Source: Fimbriimonadales bacterium
GTDB taxonomy: Bacteria > Armatimonadota > Fimbriimonadia > Fimbriimonadales > JABRVX01
NCBI GenBank assembly: GCA_045862955.1
Contig: BTVI01000003.1
Coordinates: 1-64,000 of the forward strand
Reading direction: 5' to 3'
DNA length: 64,000 bases
Numbering within the stretch: position 1 is the first letter of the stretch; the number at the start of each line of letters is the position of its first letter. The position numbers and the translations under genes were made by a program. This document shows positions 39,793 through 46,250 of this stretch, piece by piece. The notes below the pieces were generated by a model, which was given only the letters and a program-made list of their open reading frames with translations, did not search any database and was not told where the DNA came from.

Positions 39793-39862
39793 GGGGCGAT
39801 CGAGGCAAAAACGTGCGGGATTGCACAAGGAATCCTCTTCTACATGTCATAAACAAGGGCGT

Positions 39863-40459
39863 ATGCCGATGCATGTGTTAGCCGACAGCGATCTAGAGAA
39901 GCTGCTGACGGCAATACTGGACCGTTCCTATGGGGTTGCCCTGCGGATGGCGCGAAGCACAGAGGAAGCAGAGCTACTCCTCGGCGAGACCGTTGCCGAA
40001 GCCGTCCGGCGCTACCCGAAAGATGCTCCAGGACCGGCGTTTGGCCTGTGGTTTTATCGCCTTCTCGTAGAGGCGTTCGTGAAGTCGCGCGCCCGCAGGT
40101 TGCGAGAAAGCAAACAACCGGAGGCGGAGGAAGCGACCGAGCTCTTCCTCTATCACGAGACGCAGCGGCTGGGCATGCACTCGCAGTCCAGGGACCCGGC
40201 AGCGGTCTTTTTGGCCAAGCTCCGCCCGGAGCAGATTGCGGCGGCGGTCGAGGCTCTGCCTGATGAGTACCGTGTTCTGTGCGCGCTGTTCCTGTACGAA
40301 GACTTGCGGTACGTAGAGTTGGCTGCCATCCTCGGGGTTGCGCCGAGTGTGGCTCGCAGTCGGCTGCACCGCGGGCGCAACATGCTGCAGCGAACGCTGT
40401 GGCGCGTGGCAATCGAATCCGGGGTGATCCAAGAACCCGCTACGGGGAATCTGGCATGA
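39863..40459 (+). CDS. ECF-type sigma factor (SigH/SigR-like layout), region 2 divergent
   Basis: Region 4 ALPDEYR..EDLRYVELAAILG..ARSRLHRGR; coupled to a zinc anti-sigma; start uncertain. Confidence 0.8.
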   Translation: MPMHVLADSDLEKLLTAILDRSYGVALRMARSTEEAELLLGETVAEAVRRYPKDAPGPAFGLWFYRLLVEAFVKSRARRLRESKQPEAEEATELFLYHETQRLGMHSQSRDPAAVFLAKLRPEQIAAAVEALPDEYRVLCALFLYEDLRYVELAAILGVAPSVARSRLHRGRNMLQRTLWRVAIESGVIQEPATGNLA

Positions 40460-40713
40460 GCGACACCACCTTCTTCACCTGTGAAGAAACGTTTCGCCGC
40501 ATGAAGGACTACGTGGACCGCGAGCTGCCCGCCGCGGAGGTCGCGCTCGTGGAGATGCACCTGAAGGCTTGCGGCGCGTGTGCGAGCGAGTACCGGTTCG
40601 AGCAGACCTTGCTGCGAGAGATGCGTTCCAAGCTTCGATCCGTGCCGACCTCTCCGGAATCCATCGCACGCCTCCTTTCGAACGCCGCTAAGTCCGGCGA
40701 GCAGCCTAAGTAG
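40456..40713 (+). CDS. Zinc-binding anti-sigma factor (zf-HC2/ZAS, RshA-like), soluble
   Basis: TCEE..YVDREL..HLKACGAC; ATGA overlap with the sigma gene; no TM segment. Confidence 0.88.
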   Translation: MSDTTFFTCEETFRRMKDYVDRELPAAEVALVEMHLKACGACASEYRFEQTLLREMRSKLRSVPTSPESIARLLSNAAKSGEQPK

Positions 40714-40876: not shown

Positions 40877-42097
40877 GTGGAAACCGAGATGCGAACGCAT
40901 GTGATGAAGCCTTATACGATAGCTGCCGCCGCATACGTCCTGGCGGGCGTAGGGGGTGTCGGAGCGGTGTTACTGCACGTTGGCGAACCTCGGCAGTACT
41001 CGGAACCCGTCTTCTACTATGCTCCCGACTGCCCCGGCTGTGGTGACGTGCTGCCCTCTATAAAGCAGTTGGCAGGCTTGCGTTACGTGGATATCTCGCA
41101 GGCAGACGGATACGAGCGGGCTGTCGCGGCGCAAGGCAGCCCCGAGGTCGAGGTTCCATATCTGCAACTCGTCGTAGCCGGCTCACTCCGTACTGCGGTG
41201 GGCTCGGACGAGGTCTCGGCTCTAGCCCATGCGGTCACTGCTACCGACCGCGAACGAGAGACCTCGTTCAAGGTGGCTGTTGGGCTGCTTGGAATAGTCC
41301 TGCTTGCCGGCGCCGCGTCCTGGGCTTGGCTGGGCGAGCTGGCCCCTCCTGCGGGCGTTCTTCTCTCGCTTCTGGCGGCGATGAGGCCGTGCACGGCATG
41401 CGCGTCGGGGGATCGCCTGCTGAGTGCGGCAGCCTCGGTTCTGGGCGTGGCCGTCTTCCTTTGCATCATGGTGGCAGCCCGAGCGCAGGCGCCGCCGAGA
41501 CACGTGGCGGCCTGGCTGTGCGTAGCCGGAGCCATAGTACAGGCGGGCATGCTGGTAGTAGCTCCGAAATTCTGTGTTCCGTGCCTCGGGGTAGGCCTAT
41601 GCTTCCTGCTCGGCGCCAAGATGCTGCCCAACCTGCCCGTGCCTACCGTGTCGCATCCCCAGAGGTCTCGCGCATGGACAGTCTTCGCCGGGGCGGCACT
41701 AGGGTGCAGCGTTGCACTGCAGGCCGCCTCATCGTCGTACTGGCCCGTTCCCAGCGGAGGTCGCCCCATCGCTGAGTATCGGGGCAAAGAGGCATCGGAG
41801 CTTGTCGGCATGCTCCCCGAGGGAGCGCCCCGGCTCGTGGTGCTGGTGGTGGCGGGGTGCGAGGCATGCCAACGTGCGGTGGGGGCGCTCACGAGGGGCG
41901 GGGTGCCCTTCATTGCAGTGCAGAGATGCAGCGAAGCTGCCGGTCCACCCTGCTTCGCCGATGCAGCGCTAGACACCGCATACCCCACCTTTCTGGTGCT
42001 GGACGAGAGCGGGCGGATCGAGAGGATTTCGGCGGGATGGCCTTCGGGTGCAACCGCCGATGAAGCCGTCGAGTATTACAGGAGGTGTACGCAGTGA
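40877..42097 (+). CDS. Membrane thiol-disulfide oxidoreductase candidate: thioredoxin-like + VKOR-like TM region + thioredoxin-like
   Basis: FYYAPDCPGC..VPYL; TM region with CTAC and FCVPC; C-terminal GCEAC..YPTF. Start may be 40889 or 40904. Confidence 0.65.
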   Translation: METEMRTHVMKPYTIAAAAYVLAGVGGVGAVLLHVGEPRQYSEPVFYYAPDCPGCGDVLPSIKQLAGLRYVDISQADGYERAVAAQGSPEVEVPYLQLVVAGSLRTAVGSDEVSALAHAVTATDRERETSFKVAVGLLGIVLLAGAASWAWLGELAPPAGVLLSLLAAMRPCTACASGDRLLSAAASVLGVAVFLCIMVAARAQAPPRHVAAWLCVAGAIVQAGMLVVAPKFCVPCLGVGLCFLLGAKMLPNLPVPTVSHPQRSRAWTVFAGAALGCSVALQAASSSYWPVPSGGRPIAEYRGKEASELVGMLPEGAPRLVVLVVAGCEACQRAVGALTRGGVPFIAVQRCSEAAGPPCFADAALDTAYPTFLVLDESGRIERISAGWPSGATADEAVEYYRRCTQ

Positions 42098-42173
42098 AGC
42101 TCGACACGTTGCTGAGGAAATCCTGGCGCGGCGCCGTTGCCGTGCTTGGCGTGACGATGATTCTGGGGCTGAT
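41838..42173 (+). repeat. Near-identical direct repeat, copy 1 (copy 2 at 43878-44213, offset 2040)
   Basis: Only scattered substitutions over ~336 bp; identity ends abruptly after ...CTGGGGCTGAT, near the end of the signal peptide coding region. Confidence 0.95.
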
Positions 42174-42492
42174 CCAGATGCCCGGCAGCGGGCAGGTGCC
42201 GCCACCCATAGACCCCGATGACTGCAAGCCGAGCGTTCAATCAGACACGGGGTGCAAGGACTTCCAGTATATGTGCAGCCTACTAGGCTGGAACTGGCAG
42301 ATCATCGTAGAATGCCACAGGTGGTGTTGCTATCGCGATGGATACCTATACGCGACGATCTGGGAAGTACCCTCGGCGTGTGACTGTACGCAGAACCGGA
42401 CCGAGTGCTGTTCGATCTTCTTCCCGAGAAACTGCATGGAGACTGCACAGCACATGCAGAGCACGAAGCCATGCCCGCAGGTTGAGCGCTGA
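42094..42492 (+). CDS. Secreted 12-cysteine protein, variant 1
   Basis: GTG with GGAGGTG RBS, GTGA overlap with the oxidoreductase; Sec-type signal; 12 Cys in the mature region. Confidence 0.85.
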   Translation: MKLDTLLRKSWRGAVAVLGVTMILGLIQMPGSGQVPPPIDPDDCKPSVQSDTGCKDFQYMCSLLGWNWQIIVECHRWCCYRDGYLYATIWEVPSACDCTQNRTECCSIFFPRNCMETAQHMQSTKPCPQVER

Positions 42493-42672
42493 GGTTCTAT
42501 GAGGAGTGACCAAGGCCGGGTACCCGGACGTGCTCGTCGCTCTCCGTTCGGGCGGTACTGCTGGGCGATCGTGCAGGGGAAAATGCGCGTGGCCCGCGGT
42601 GTCGGACGCCACTCTCCCCCGCGCGGGGCCGAGAGGTCGTTGTCGGTTATCACGTAGGAGGGGAAATCGGAC

Positions 42673-43083
42673 ATGAGCGGACTGGCGGATGAGATTCGAT
42701 CGTGGCGTCCAATATACCAGTGCGTGGCGCTAGGGGCGGCCGCAGGATTCACGTTCGGCGTCTTCGCCATGGTAGGCTACTACGTCCTCGGGGAATTCAG
42801 AGGTGAGCCGACGCAGACTGTCGCTATCAGCACCCTACTCTGTGCACTTGTCATAGCGCCTTGCGAGTCTCGGTGGGGCAGAGCCGGCTTGATCTGGGCG
42901 AACGCAGCCCTAGCCGTAGTCTGGATCGCGTTCTACTTGGTGGCTGCAGCCTACACCGGCCGCGTGTTCGTCGTCGGAGGTCTACGCGGCACTATCGTGG
43001 TGCTAACCGTGCTGCCCCTGCTAGCGGCGGGCAGTAGTGTGCTGTACGTACGGTTTCGGCATAGTCTGATGGTTGGTCGCTAA
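42673..43083 (+). CDS. Small multi-pass membrane protein, candidate cognate partner/immunity of variant 1
   Basis: 136 aa, about 4 hydrophobic helices, AGGAGG RBS; paralogs at 44672 and 45120. Confidence 0.75.
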   Translation: MSGLADEIRSWRPIYQCVALGAAAGFTFGVFAMVGYYVLGEFRGEPTQTVAISTLLCALVIAPCESRWGRAGLIWANAALAVVWIAFYLVAAAYTGRVFVVGGLRGTIVVLTVLPLLAAGSSVLYVRFRHSLMVGR

Positions 43084-43093
43084 GAGGTGTTGT

Positions 43094-43822
43094 ATGCTCA
43101 GGCGTGGTGTGGGACTAACGCTCGTGGAGCTACTCGTGGTCACCGCAGTGATCGCCGCGCTCGCTGCGATTCTGTATCCGGTAGTCACAGTCGCACGGAA
43201 ACGTGGGCAGAGCGCTCAGATCGTGAGTAACATGCGACAGCTCGCACAAGCGGTTAATGTATATATGGATGACTACTGCCTGCGTTTGCCACCCTTAGAT
43301 CCCAGGCCTCTACTGAAGAACCCGGCGGTCAGAGCCATCGCCTACTACCCACACAAGATGGCGACGCGGTCGGAGATGGACAGCGCACCGAGAGAAGAAG
43401 TTCCATTCCTCGGAGACTACGTGTACTGCCGGGAGGTGATCGGGCCGTCCGTTGGCTACGTGGTGTTTGATCACTGGCCAGACTTCTGGCGCGACCCCGA
43501 CGCTGTGTGGAACCACTACTGGACGGGCGTTCCGGCTTCCCCTGTCATCCTGGTATCCCTGCACGACGCGGGCTTTCACATGCTACCCCGCCAGAAGCCG
43601 CTGTGGGCGGTCTTCGACACCAAGTATGATGATCCGCCGCCGCCACCGTGGCTTCGTTTTCCCCCTAGGGTGCTGCGCTGTCGGCTGGACACTTCGGTGC
43701 GCACGTACCGTATCTTGAGGCACATGCAGACGAACATGGTCTTCTCCTATCTGCCGCTCTGTAGGAACAGGTTTGTCTGCTGTAGGACGTGTGAGGAGGC
43801 TGGTCAATACTGTTCGGAATAG
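43094..43822 (+). CDS. Prepilin-type (type II secretion/pilin-like) protein with Cys-rich C-terminus, copy 1
   Basis: GLTLVELLVVTAVIAALAAILYPV..SNMRQL; ends C-x5-CC-x2-C-x6-C; GAGGTG RBS. Confidence 0.85.
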   Translation: MLRRGVGLTLVELLVVTAVIAALAAILYPVVTVARKRGQSAQIVSNMRQLAQAVNVYMDDYCLRLPPLDPRPLLKNPAVRAIAYYPHKMATRSEMDSAPREEVPFLGDYVYCREVIGPSVGYVVFDHWPDFWRDPDAVWNHYWTGVPASPVILVSLHDAGFHMLPRQKPLWAVFDTKYDDPPPPPWLRFPPRVLRCRLDTSVRTYRILRHMQTNMVFSYLPLCRNRFVCCRTCEEAGQYCSE

Positions 43823-43876
43823 CCTCCGACGACGTCGGGGCGAAGCCCCCCTGTCTGCTCGGTAGCGCCAGGCGAC

Positions 43877-44137
43877 TTGGTGCTGGTGATGGCGGGGTGC
43901 GAGGCGTGCGAGCGTGCGGTGGGGGCGCTCACGAGGGGCGGGGTGCCCTTCATTGCAGTGCGGAGATGCAGCGAAGCTGCCGGTCCACCCTGCTTCGCCG
44001 ATGCAGCGCTAGACACGGCATACCCCACCTTTCTGGTGCTGGACGAGAGCGGGCGGATGGAGAGGATTTCGGCGGGATGGCCTTCGGGTGCAACCGCCGA
44101 TGAAGCCGTCGAGTATTACAGGAGGTGTACGCAGTGA
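43877..44137 (+). pseudogene. 5'-truncated duplicate of the C-terminal thioredoxin-like domain of 40877..42097
   Basis: Near-identical to 41837-42097, no clear RBS; carries the RBS of the next gene. Confidence 0.8.
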
Positions 44138-44523
44138 AGCTCGACACGTTGCTGAGGAAATCCTGGCGCGGCGCCGTTGCCGTACTTGGCGTGACGATGA
44201 TTCTGGGGCTGATACCGGTGCACACGTTGGGACAGGGAACGCCCCCGCCGCCGATGCAGTGCACGACCACTTCCCATGGGATGTTCGGCTGCAAGGACTA
44301 CCCTGGTTCATGCTCAACCTCAGAGACTAACTGGGACATTATCGTCGCTTGCGATCGCAAGTGCTGTTATGTCGAAGGACAACTCTACTCCGAGACGTGG
44401 ACTCTTTCGTCTAACTGCTGGTGCGTTCAGCTGCAGGGCTGCTGCGATTATAATCGCAATTGCACACAGACGGCGGACATGATCAAGGACAGGTGGCCCT
44501 GCCCGCGATACCAGCAGCAGTAG
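44134..44523 (+). CDS. Secreted 12-cysteine protein, variant 2
   Basis: First 27 aa identical to variant 1; same 12-Cys scaffold; divergent loops. Confidence 0.85.
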   Translation: MKLDTLLRKSWRGAVAVLGVTMILGLIPVHTLGQGTPPPPMQCTTTSHGMFGCKDYPGSCSTSETNWDIIVACDRKCCYVEGQLYSETWTLSSNCWCVQLQGCCDYNRNCTQTADMIKDRWPCPRYQQQ

Positions 44524-44671
44524 GAGCTTAGCAGCATGAGGCTTGAGAACGGCGGGCACACCGCGAGTGGCTACGCGCAGGGCCTCAGGTCACACCCTCC
44601 CAGGGAGGAATTGGCGCGTGAGGAACCAGCCCCGCTTGTCGTGTTGGCGAACTTCTGAAAGAGGAATCTAA

Positions 44672-45088
44672 GTGGACGTTAGGTATCGCGGCATTTGGGA
44701 CGAGGTGAGGGCATGGCCTGCATGGGTCCGTGTTCCGGCTGTCGGTGCCGCTGCCGGCGCTTCCTTTGGGGTGTTTGCATCGGTGGGGTACTATTTGGTT
44801 GGGCAGTACCGTGGTAGGCCATGGGAGATCGCCATCATCGCTGCTTTGTGGGGCGCTGCAGTTGTCGCTCCTCTGCACAACAGGTACGGCCGCGCAGCAA
44901 TAGCATATGCCACCTTGCTAGCAGCAACCTTGTGGCTGCCGTTCTCTGTGTACACGGGCCAGCTTACCGCGGAGCACATGGCCACCGAGCTCTTCTATAC
45001 TATTCTGTACGTCACGACATTGCCGCTCCTATCCGTCGGCACGTCGACGGTCTATACACTGATGGAGCGGGCAATGCGTGGGCACTAG
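44672..45088 (+). CDS. Small multi-pass membrane protein, diverged paralog of 42673..43083, candidate partner of variant 2
   Basis: Shares GAAAGxxFGVFAxVGYYxxGxxRGxP and LPLL with its paralog; GAGG RBS before GTG. Confidence 0.75.
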   Translation: MDVRYRGIWDEVRAWPAWVRVPAVGAAAGASFGVFASVGYYLVGQYRGRPWEIAIIAALWGAAVVAPLHNRYGRAAIAYATLLAATLWLPFSVYTGQLTAEHMATELFYTILYVTTLPLLSVGTSTVYTLMERAMRGH

Positions 45089-45119
45089 CGGTACATCCGA
45101 CGAGGAGCGCTAATTGGGG

Positions 45120-45505
45120 ACGGGCGGACTAGCGGATGAGATTCGATCGTGGCGTCCAATATACCAGTGCATGGCGCTAGGAACGGCCGCAGGATTCGCC
45201 TTCGGCGTCTTCGCCACGGCAGGCTACTACGTACTCGGGCAATTCAGAGGTGAGCCGATGCAGACTGTCGCTATCAGCACCCTACTCTGTGCACTTGTCG
45301 TAGGGCCTTGCGAGTTTCGGTGGGGCACAGCCGGCTTGATCTGGGCGAACGCAGCCCTAGCCCTAGTCTGGATCGGGTTCTACTTGGTGGCTGCAGCGGA
45401 GGTCCACTCGGCACTATCGTGCTGCTAACCGCGCTGCCCCTGCTAGCGGCGGGCAGTAGCGTGCTGTACGTTCTGTTTCGGCATCGTCCGATGGTCGGTC
45501 GCTAG
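45120..45505 (+). pseudogene. Pseudogene copy of 42673..43083
   Basis: Start-codon position reads ACG; 25-nt deletion (CTACACCGGCCGCGTGTTCGTCGTC) near 45398 causes a frameshift. Confidence 0.85.
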
Positions 45506-45515
45506 GAGGTGTCGT

Positions 45516-46250
45516 ATGCTTAGGCGTGTCGTCGCACTGACGCTGATAGAGCTACTCGTGGTCATTGCAGTGATCGCCGCGCTCGCTGCGATTCTGTACC
45601 CTGTCATCTCGGGAGCGCGGAAACGTGGGCAGAACGCTCAGATCGTGAGTAACATGCGGCAGCTCGCACAAGCGGTCAATGTCTACATGGAGGACAACCA
45701 CCTGCGTCTTCCGCCCTTCGACCCTAGGCCGCTGCTGAAGAACCCGGCGGTCAGAGCCATCGCCTACTACCCGCACAAGATGGCAACGCGGTCGGAGATG
45801 GACAGTGCACCCAGAGAAGAGGTTCCATTCCTCGGAGACTATGTGTACTGCCGGCAGGTGGTCGGAGTCTCTGCAAACTACTTCGTGGTTGAGCGCTGGC
45901 CCGACGTCATTTGGCGCGACCCCGACGCCGTGTGGCGCAACTACTGGACAGACATTTCGGCGTCACCTGTCATCCTGGTATCCCTGCACGACGCGGGCTT
46001 TCAGATGCTGCCCCGCCAGCAGCCGCTCGGGGACTCCGTCCCGGACACTGAACACGACAAGCCGGTCAGACCACCGCCGGTGAACTTCCCGCCGAGGGTC
46101 CTTAGGTGTAGGCTGGACACTTCGGTGCGGACGTATCGAATCGTGGAGCACATGCAAACGAACATGGGATTCTCGTATATCCCGTTGTGTATGAACAAGT
46201 ATGCCTGCTGCAAGCACTGCCAAGAGGCGGGCCAGGACTGCTCCGAATAG
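45516..46250 (+). CDS. Prepilin-type protein with Cys-rich C-terminus, copy 2
   Basis: [24 protein letters not shown]; close paralog of 43094..43822; GGAGGTG RBS. Confidence 0.87.
   Translation: MLRRVVALTLIELLVVIAVIAALAAILYPVISGARKRGQNAQIVSNMRQLAQAVNVYMEDNHLRLPPFDPRPLLKNPAVRAIAYYPHKMATRSEMDSAPREEVPFLGDYVYCRQVVGVSANYFVVERWPDVIWRDPDAVWRNYWTDISASPVILVSLHDAGFQMLPRQQPLGDSVPDTEHDKPVRPPPVNFPPRVLRCRLDTSVRTYRIVEHMQTNMGFSYIPLCMNKYACCKHCQEAGQDCSE

Follow-up and report, generated by a model that had tools for sequence, protein, structure and literature searches.

A putatively exported Cys-rich protein and its putative small membrane partner as an apparently exchangeable gene cassette in Fimbriimonadales

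In the genome of a Fimbriimonadales bacterium (assembly GCA_045862955.1), two neighboring genes encode small cysteine-rich proteins, here referred to as CysA and CysB, which begin with the same leader and are markedly different thereafter. The genes are located on contig BTVI01000003.1, in the 64,000 nucleotides that were analyzed (positions 1 to 64,000, below referred to as the window). The question raised by this locus is how two adjacent genes can have a common 5′ end and at the same time encode dissimilar mature proteins, and what function such an arrangement may serve. An initial annotation offered two explanations, i.e., diversifying selection on the mature part or exchange of cassettes. 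The comparisons described below support the latter; the mature domain of the Cys-rich protein appears to be exchanged together with the following gene, which encodes a small membrane protein called TM138.

Two proteins with a common leader in a tandem duplication

Both open reading frames (ORFs) are found on the forward strand, at 42085/42094..42492 (CysA) and 44125/44134..44523 (CysB). The most likely start of CysA is the GTG at 42094 rather than an ATG, because an AGGAGG sequence is found 8 nt upstream and because this start overlaps with the stop TGA (42095−42097) of the preceding gene as GTGA. The database versions of the proteins begin with MKLDTLL or MRLDTLL. Residues 1−27 of CysA and CysB are identical (27/27); beyond residue 27 the linker is 31% identical, the predicted strands 49%, the loops 29% and the helix 27%. 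Over the full length, BLASTP yields 52% identity (E 3e-41), and the mature proteins alone are 40% identical. All 12 Cys residues are in register, with spacings of 9,6,12,3,0,16,1,6,0,7,12 in CysA and 9,6,12,3,0,16,1,5,0,5,12 in CysB, exactly as given in the initial annotation, which is borne out in that the two are paralogs with a common Sec-type leader and a fixed 12-Cys scaffold. Inspection of the leader by eye reveals the charged residues K2, R8, K9 and R12 and the h-region GAVAVLGVTMILGLI; candidate cleavage sites, also assigned by eye, are GSG↓Q (CysA) and TLG↓Q (CysB), and clearer sites are seen in relatives (VQA↓G, AEGA↓F, FAQS↓G). From these elements we infer that CysA and CysB are probably exported by the Sec pathway and that the leader is cleaved.

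CysA and CysB are not two isolated genes but belong to a tandem duplication of ~2.0−2.4 kb, in which the following features are found:

40877..42097, forward strand: 406-residue polytopic membrane protein, putative thiol-disulfide oxidoreductase (CxxC motifs, three in number and invariant in the family; putative glutaredoxin/thioredoxin-like domain at the C-terminus)
42080..42085, forward strand: Shine-Dalgarno sequence AGGAGG, 8 nt 5′ of the CysA start (direct reading)
42094..42492, forward strand: CysA, 132 residues; leader residues 1−27(−33), Pro-rich linker and 12-Cys domain (ORF, alignment and AlphaFold2 (AF2) model)
42673..43083, forward strand: TM136, small protein with ~4 hydrophobic segments by eye (ORF; TM138 is a paralog at 39−41% identity)
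43094..43822, forward strand: prepilin-type protein of unit 1, similar to type IV pilins, 242 residues; its C-terminal tail is rich in Cys (N-terminus matched by N_methyl and GspG)
43861..44137, forward strand: remnant of the oxidoreductase gene, last ~90 codons, which brings the Shine-Dalgarno sequence and start context of CysB (protein match to residues 317−406 at 92%)
44134..44523, forward strand: CysB, 129 residues; leader identical to that of CysA, 12-Cys domain of a second type (ORF and alignment; ortholog in the sister genome, G001, 94% identical)
44219..45109, forward strand: putative exchange tract of 891 bp, composed of mature CysB, spacer and TM138 (1.6% divergence from the sister species)
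44672..45088, forward strand: TM138, small membrane protein that apparently travels with the CysB mature region (ORF; without counterpart in unit 1)
45114..45505, forward strand: TM136-like gene of unit 2, frameshifted by a 25-bp deletion (repeat offsets 2447 and 2422; ORFs 45114−45428 and 45308−45505)
45516..46250, forward strand: prepilin-type protein of unit 2, 244 residues (79% identical to the unit-1 copy; synonymous divergence (dS) 0.63)

The similarity between the two units is a mosaic. Repeat D1 (41821−42120 and 43861−44160) is 95% identical, and an upstream block of 336 bp (41838−42173, equivalent to 43878−44213) is 97.6% identical and ends at leader codon 27. The DNA encoding mature CysA and mature CysB, on the other hand, yields no match to each other with blastn (word 7, E 1e-3), while the downstream segments 42677−43843 and 45124−46271 are 82.7% identical. 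The flanking DNA, which had been described as near-identical, is thus so on the upstream but not on the downstream side; the mature regions do differ as claimed. At the junction of the duplication, the end of the pilin-like gene of unit 1 (pilin249) runs into the oxidoreductase remnant within 17 bp. The broken TM136-like gene of unit 2 consists of a 104-residue ORF plus a second frame, both of which are matched by a profile of this membrane-protein family, and the profile finds only three copies of the family in the genome.

Substitution rates (Nei−Gojobori, pairwise, three sequences) are consistent with this mosaic. Between the A and B leaders, dS is 0.085 and the nonsynonymous divergence (dN) is 0, and between the oxidoreductase remnant and the intact gene dS is 0.047. 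For the mature parts dS is ~2.4, i.e., saturated, and dN is 0.66 (dN/dS 0.28), while TM136 and its broken copy differ with a dS of 0.07 and a dN/dS of 1.47. Comparison of CysB with its ortholog in G001 gives a dN/dS of 0.27−0.52, based on 6−18 changes. Diversifying selection on the mature region, one of the two explanations initially offered, is not supported by these values. With a dS of ~2.4 as compared to 0.047−0.63 around them, the mature parts are much older than the sequences that surround them, and a dN/dS of 0.28 points to purifying selection. They thus resemble old alleles or paralogs that have come to be adjacent, rather than fast-evolving loops. The pattern also argues for a 5′ block that was recently homogenized or that serves as a crossover site.

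Exchange between species

The genome carries only two copies of the Cys-rich gene family, and it is the only genome with two, while G001, which belongs to the same genus, has a single, B-type unit that is colinear with unit 2. The background dS between the two genomes is 0.33−0.72 (sigma factor, pilin-like and BNR genes), as compared to 0.03 for mature CysB and 0.009 for TM138. There are 14 differences in 44100−44218 (12%) and equally 14 in the far longer segment 44219−45109 (1.6%), and beyond ~45180 the next membrane-protein gene is unalignable with that of G001 (33−48% identity per 60-column window). In other words, an 891-bp tract with 1.6% divergence is found between flanks that diverge by at least 12%, and the similarity of the two units of the window stops sharply where the signal peptide ends. 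Both observations agree with the cassette exchange proposed initially. The left border of the tract, at the end of the signal peptide, is also the point where CysA and CysB diverge within the genome. This one border, apparently common to two independent events, is the strongest support for the initial proposal of cassette exchange.

Additional data were obtained from metagenomes, i.e., Logan contigs of public sequencing runs, where coverage was judged at ≥95% identity. In two runs from two other studies, X4 and X5, the mature region of CysA (42178−42706, 529 nt) is found with 0 differences and the CysB-TM138 segment (44172−45153) with 16−17 differences; at 11 of the 16 listed variant positions of the latter the letter is that of G001. 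At this identity, neither run covers 41700−42013, in the body of the oxidoreductase gene, or 45154−45467, and X4 shows no cover up to 45624 either, where X5 has low depth. Cassettes that circulate among diverged backgrounds would be expected to give this pattern. A contig of X5 that joins 42207 to 45549 has only 30 letters on one side and is too weak to be interpreted.

The metagenomes also bear on whether the tandem exists, because the A/B arrangement could in principle be a chimera of two strain alleles joined at the 336-bp repeat. The assembly is composed of 94 contigs, a repeat of this length at 97.6% identity could mislead an assembler, and the sister genome has one unit only. The junction is nevertheless clean, and a 394-nt contig of run X1, which is possibly the source sample itself, spans it (43549−43942) with 0 differences. 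Furthermore, both cassettes are present in one run in each of the two other studies, and the downstream parts of the units are only 83% alike, which implies distinct loci rather than collapsed alleles. We consider an assembly artefact very improbable.

A search for promoters in the locus revealed no promoter-like site, and a terminator scan found 8 weak terminator-like sites, as compared to 3.3 expected, all within genes. In an RNA-library run, X15, contigs are found at 44365−44693 (3′ half of CysB to the start of TM138; 6 differences) and at 45171−45416 (the broken membrane-protein gene; 2 differences). These contigs are a weak hint of transcription, and DNA carry-over is also possible.

A rare protein family and its cassette

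CysA and CysB match no family in Pfam (E≤0.1), NCBIfam (E≤0.1) or PADLOC (E≤0.01), and no toxin domain was found in either protein with hidden Markov models (Pfam, NCBIfam) or by fold search. When 5.8 billion proteins were searched with a single sequence, the two own clusters were the only matches. A three-sequence profile run against 1.84 billion representatives likewise returned only the own cluster, apart from P0003, a 4596-residue repeat protein (18 weak stretches, E 1.7e-10), which was rejected as a compositional match because its repeats are rich in T, S and A, have ~1 Cys each and show none of the scaffold. The wider family was reached via distant homologs of the 406-residue protein in the same order, followed by iterated profiles. 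The ORF directly behind the oxidoreductase homolog of genome G046 encodes a leader-bearing, Cys-rich protein that aligns with CysA and CysB (24% identity, with Cys in common). With a seven-sequence profile, 12 clusters were found among the 5.8 billion proteins, all of them “hypothetical” wherever the source gives a name and none with a Pfam domain; one is assigned by the source to an Armatimonadetes bacterium. Of the 228 genomes of the order, 10 carry a homolog, and these represent 7 of 68 genera. A search of 401 genomes of the phylum added one genome, which belongs to a different order. Two candidates were discarded, one in G006 (E 0.002), which has three in-frame TGA codons, is located inside a large efflux-type gene and disappeared with a better profile, and one in G035 (E 0.004), which was recovered by neither profile.

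A hydrophobic segment is found at the N-terminus of all 17 aligned members, which also have eight core Cys residues in common (C44, C54, C61, CC78/79, CC105/106 and C127 in CysA numbering), as well as N67 and a WNYKIYY-like motif. Four additional Cys (C74, C96, C98 and C114) are found in the genus of the window; most sequences of the family at large resemble each other fairly closely and have 8 Cys rather than 12. Searches of Pfam with these 17 sequences gave no row at E≤1 for 16 of them and one row at E 0.27 (DUF6442) for the remaining one. The family is real, rare and restricted to the phylum.

The AF2 model of CysA, based on an alignment of 17 sequences, has a predicted local distance difference test (pLDDT) score of 79, with 80−95 in blocks of the mature domain. 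It is composed of four long antiparallel strands (44−56, 67−81, 84−90 and 97−106) and a C-terminal helix (114−124). An earlier model from three sequences (pLDDT 62), also without a Foldseek match, was superseded. Comparison of the 17-sequence model with the Protein Data Bank (PDB) using Foldseek gave no match at E≤0.001 (best E 1.2), and VIA-align against 48,161 chains gave a best Z of 3.8 and none ≥5, i.e., below the usual background quoted for the tool. A sequence profile of the family against the PDB gave a best E of 1.2. An ESM Atlas feature search found no match for CysA; structure rows of the Atlas for this protein were ignored because the model on which they are based, made by the Atlas itself, is poor (pLDDT 0.45). 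Neither curated families nor, by sequence or fold, solved structures yielded a match. No paper on the family or the cassette was found in the open-access literature searched (main texts). Family and cassette are new insofar as they are absent from curated families, solved folds and that literature.

The order of the genes, i.e., CxxC membrane protein, Cys-rich protein and prepilin-like protein, is maintained in 11 of 11 genomes with a homolog, and in seven of these the start of the Cys-rich gene overlaps by 4 nt with the stop of the membrane-protein gene, as judged from coordinates. In most cassettes a small membrane protein follows; a small lipoprotein-like ORF is found instead in G171, G198 and G199, and G039 has both. 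The flanking genes vary. In the window these are:

39821..40459, forward strand: extracytoplasmic function (ECF) sigma factor, SigH/SigR-like (Pfam Sigma70_r4_2 2.3e-8; NCBIfam TIGR02947 SigH_actino 6.9e-23, below its cut-off)
40456..40713, forward strand: soluble zinc-finger (HxxxCxxC) ZAS anti-sigma factor, RsrA-like (Pfam zf-HC2 1.1e-8; NCBIfam antisig_RsrA 2.1e-8, below its cut-off)
46263−48464, reverse strand: BNR/Asp-box, sortilin-Vps10-like beta-propeller protein, 733 residues, converging on the end of the cassette (94% of amino acids conserved in G001)

In the first protein of the cassette, the 406-residue putative oxidoreductase, the pairs C172/C175, C233/C236 and C328/C331 are invariant in an alignment of six of six homologs, and one invariant CxxC precedes a transmembrane helix (PKFCxxC). 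A PDB profile matches the region of the last CxxC to Spx (E 0.004) and glutaredoxin (E 0.036), and Pfam Glutaredoxin is found, below its cut-off, at E 0.04−0.09 in three of the six members. Fusions of VKOR to thioredoxin or DsbA are comparable in being polytopic, with paired Cys, a CxxC at the membrane edge and a C-terminal thioredoxin fold with CxxC; in the 406-residue protein this fold is putative, and with the topology assigned by eye all three CxxC motifs would be outside the cytoplasm. In contrast to VKOR, the first Cys pair is a CxxC rather than C-x5−7-C. The nearest ESM Atlas cluster scores 0.90, and VKOR is assigned to 25% of its members, which is a lead only. Pfam VKOR (PF07884) misses the protein at E≤1, although the true VKOR of the genome gives 52.3 bits, the PDB profile reaches VKOR only at E 1.4, and hhalign against the VKOR-DsbA of the genome gives a probability of 1.6 over only 23 columns, at the thioredoxin CxxC. 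This VKOR-DsbA is a canonical VKOR fused to a DsbA-like domain with CPSC, encoded elsewhere in the genome (G000:C16:37404-37781; L032 739−2109, reverse strand), and is likely the general disulfide-forming enzyme of the organism. Its presence indicates that periplasmic disulfide formation exists in this host; no DsbB was found in the genome. In G001 the oxidoreductase gene (L008, G001:C8, 9457−10687, reverse strand) is found in three frames, with pieces that match residues 2−176, 143−321 and 302−406.

With so many Cys residues, CysA and CysB could also be envelope redox or metal proteins in which Cys serve as a thiol buffer, a sensor or metal ligands, under control of the SigR/RsrA-like pair and acting with the CxxC protein. 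The position of the SigH/SigR-like sigma factor and the RsrA-like ZAS anti-sigma factor directly upstream, the CxxC motifs of the membrane protein and the presence of 12 Cys in ~100 residues would all fit. However, among the genomes looked at, the sigma/anti-sigma pair is located beside the cassette only in the genus of the window, and even there it is not tightly linked, because in G001 ~850 extra bases separate the anti-sigma and oxidoreductase genes (L008 10690−11580; window 40677−40784). This insert holds a 159-residue ORF on the opposite strand (MTNTLWVPGSETEAE...). Metal sites are typically formed by CxxC or CxxH clusters; the Cys residues of the family are instead spread over the strands as CC, CxC and single residues. 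An even number of core Cys (8, 10 or 12) in 16 of 17 members is as expected for disulfides, and the confident core of the AF2 model is a compact sheet with a helix. A redox or metal function is therefore improbable.

The third component displays the motifs G↓LTLVE and A↓LTLIE, and with 17.4−17.5 bits in TIGR02532 (cut-off 16.3) the 242- and 244-residue proteins can be assigned a prepilin-type N-terminus. Homologs are full-length across all cassette loci, and Pfam N_methyl is found in 10 of 11 (best E 2e-9). In the genus of the window these proteins end in a Cys-rich tail, C-x6-CC-x2-C-x6-C (43760−43822 and 46190−46250), and are without the CDPxDYW...C pair common to the other cassette pilins. 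At least 58 prepilin-type N-terminal regions (GFTLxELLVV...SNLRQ) are found in the genome, most of which have only the first ~70 residues in common with the cassette pilins. This expansion matches the 79 PulG-like genes reported for Fimbriimonas ginsengisoli (PMC4072686).

The pilin-like protein suggests a second role for its neighbor, namely that of a pilus or pseudopilus exoprotein or adhesin, e.g., a periplasmic cargo or tip partner, without any function in self/non-self discrimination, where A and B would have arisen by duplication and gene conversion. The closest analogs are TcpF of Vibrio cholerae and CofJ of enterotoxigenic Escherichia coli, which act with the minor pilins TcpB and CofB and are, as presumably the Cys-rich protein, soluble, Sec-exported and encoded beside pilin genes (PMC10120004; compare PMC6048534 and PMC9565799). 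Their mature proteins begin with a disordered segment (PMC10120004); CysA, CysB and some relatives have a Pro-rich segment of low confidence after the leader. This role would also account for the presence of one specific pilin-like subfamily beside the gene in all 11 genomes, a subfamily with only two full-length matches to its profile among the at least 58 N-termini mentioned above, and for the moderate conservation of most family members. On the other hand, there is hardly any linker upstream of the first Cys in many members. TcpF and CofJ differ from the Cys-rich protein in that there is no similarity of sequence or fold, the latter is much smaller (~100 residues when mature), the single pilin-like gene is found without an assembly operon, and a dedicated CxxC membrane protein is present. 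Moreover, a pilus role does not by itself account for a mature domain that moves between species together with TM138 as a sharply bordered segment. By analogy with these systems this role ranks second; it is possible, but on balance somewhat unlikely.

The small membrane proteins are more difficult to classify. TM136 matched no Pfam or NCBIfam family, and those of different loci are alike in size and in layout as seen by eye. The next-best match to the pilin profile in the same genome (G000:C6:77547-78014; L048 3448−4515, reverse strand) aligns over positions 6−151 of 214 (E 1e-29) and is directly followed by an ORF for a hydrophobic protein of 146 residues; no Cys-rich or CxxC gene was found among ORFs of at least 70 residues in 8.5 kb at this locus. 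In another genome (G336:C13; L039 1892−2338, reverse strand), a second cassette-like small membrane protein is encoded ~3.3 kb away, beside ABC-transporter-like genes, and may be an extra, “orphan” copy.

Possible function of the cassette

The reading that we tentatively favor is that of a Sec-exported, disulfide-stapled protein encoded in an allelic cassette, whose partners would be the pilin-like and the small membrane protein; a role in recognition or antagonism is the most likely one, although short of probable. The cassette, a self-contained envelope module of three or four genes, would be composed of the CxxC membrane protein, the Cys-rich protein, the pilin-like protein and, usually, the small membrane protein. 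After export by the Sec machinery, directed by its N-terminal leader, the Cys-rich protein would fold into a four-stranded sheet with a helix, stapled by four core disulfides (six in this genus), presumably with the aid of the cassette's own oxidoreductase, and would then act outside the cytoplasm with the pilin-like and small membrane proteins. In the genus of the window, the mature domain and the following membrane-protein gene would behave as an allelic cassette, for which recombination may use the conserved leader as the left junction. A duplication or insertion, of which the remnant of the oxidoreductase gene is a trace, would have placed the old types A and B in tandem. The membrane protein could protect its producer from an effector or be the receptor of a ligand, i.e., alternative forms of a self/non-self function. 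Recognition or antagonism is ranked first because of the constant delivery part, the variable body, the co-traveling membrane protein, the extra module with its stub and the transfer between species, a combination that is characteristic of polymorphic self/non-self loci.

These properties are reminiscent of polymorphic toxin-immunity loci with orphan cassettes, such as contact-dependent growth inhibition (CDI; cdiA-CT/cdiI), Rhs and type VI secretion system (T6SS) effector/immunity arrays, where a constant N-terminal delivery part is combined with a variable C-terminal part, a small downstream gene travels with the variable part, tandem modules keep an upstream stub, and exchange takes place by homologous recombination (compare PMC5361080, PMC3967940 and PMC4927057). 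The differences are substantial. Here, the constant part is only a 27-residue Sec leader and the 3′ end of the preceding gene, there is no recognizable toxin domain, the downstream gene encodes a small membrane protein that belongs to no known family, no type V secretion system, T6SS or Rhs components are found, and dN/dS is well below 1. Small, secreted, disulfide-rich toxins and defense peptides of animals, plants and fungi resemble CysA and CysB, as these are predicted, in having a signal peptide, a compact Cys-stapled domain with CC and CxC motifs and a scaffold that is kept while other positions vary. The present proteins differ in that they have no fold match, a larger domain (~90 residues, sheet and helix) and a bacterial operon, and the comparison is an analogy only.

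Several observations weigh against the role favored here. Among the three sequences compared, the mature parts display no sign of positive selection, and most members of the family are fairly conserved, single-copy Cys-rich proteins, which would fit a structural or adhesive role better than that of an arms-race effector. The leader was judged by eye, and the cleavage site of CysA and CysB is not the canonical AxA. The oxidoreductase is not detectably a member of the VKOR or DsbB families, and in G001 its gene is split over three frames while CysB′ is intact, which reflects either a pseudogene or assembly errors. The small membrane proteins of different loci are only 13−18% identical, a level at which homology is not established. 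In addition, the pair of a pilin-like and a small membrane protein is also found without a Cys-rich gene (G007 and the own contig C6), and the partner of the small membrane protein may therefore be the pilin instead of the Cys-rich protein. The proposal in its most complete form, namely a self/non-self system seen so far only in the phylum, with a disulfide-knotted exoprotein of new fold that would act on neighboring cells, its own CxxC oxidase, a dedicated pilin, a membrane protein as protector or receptor and swaps between species by crossover in the leader-coding segment, is rather unlikely.

If the Cys-rich protein is only a structural component of the envelope, the locus merely adds one more lineage-specific family, albeit one whose duplication can be traced neatly. 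If, on the other hand, the reading favored above is true, it would define a new protein fold and family, where even a confident model reaches a structural Z of only 3.8 at best, and offer a first functional handle on one of the many pilin-like genes (at least 58 here) that fill genomes of this phylum without an assigned role. Through the overlap of start and stop, a putative thiol oxidoreductase of the membrane is tied to a single substrate gene, and this pair would provide a clean system for studies of substrate-specific oxidative folding. Compact cassette exchange with the crossover at the end of the signal peptide would, finally, be an unusual way of maintaining a constant export route while the exported domain and its partner are swapped.

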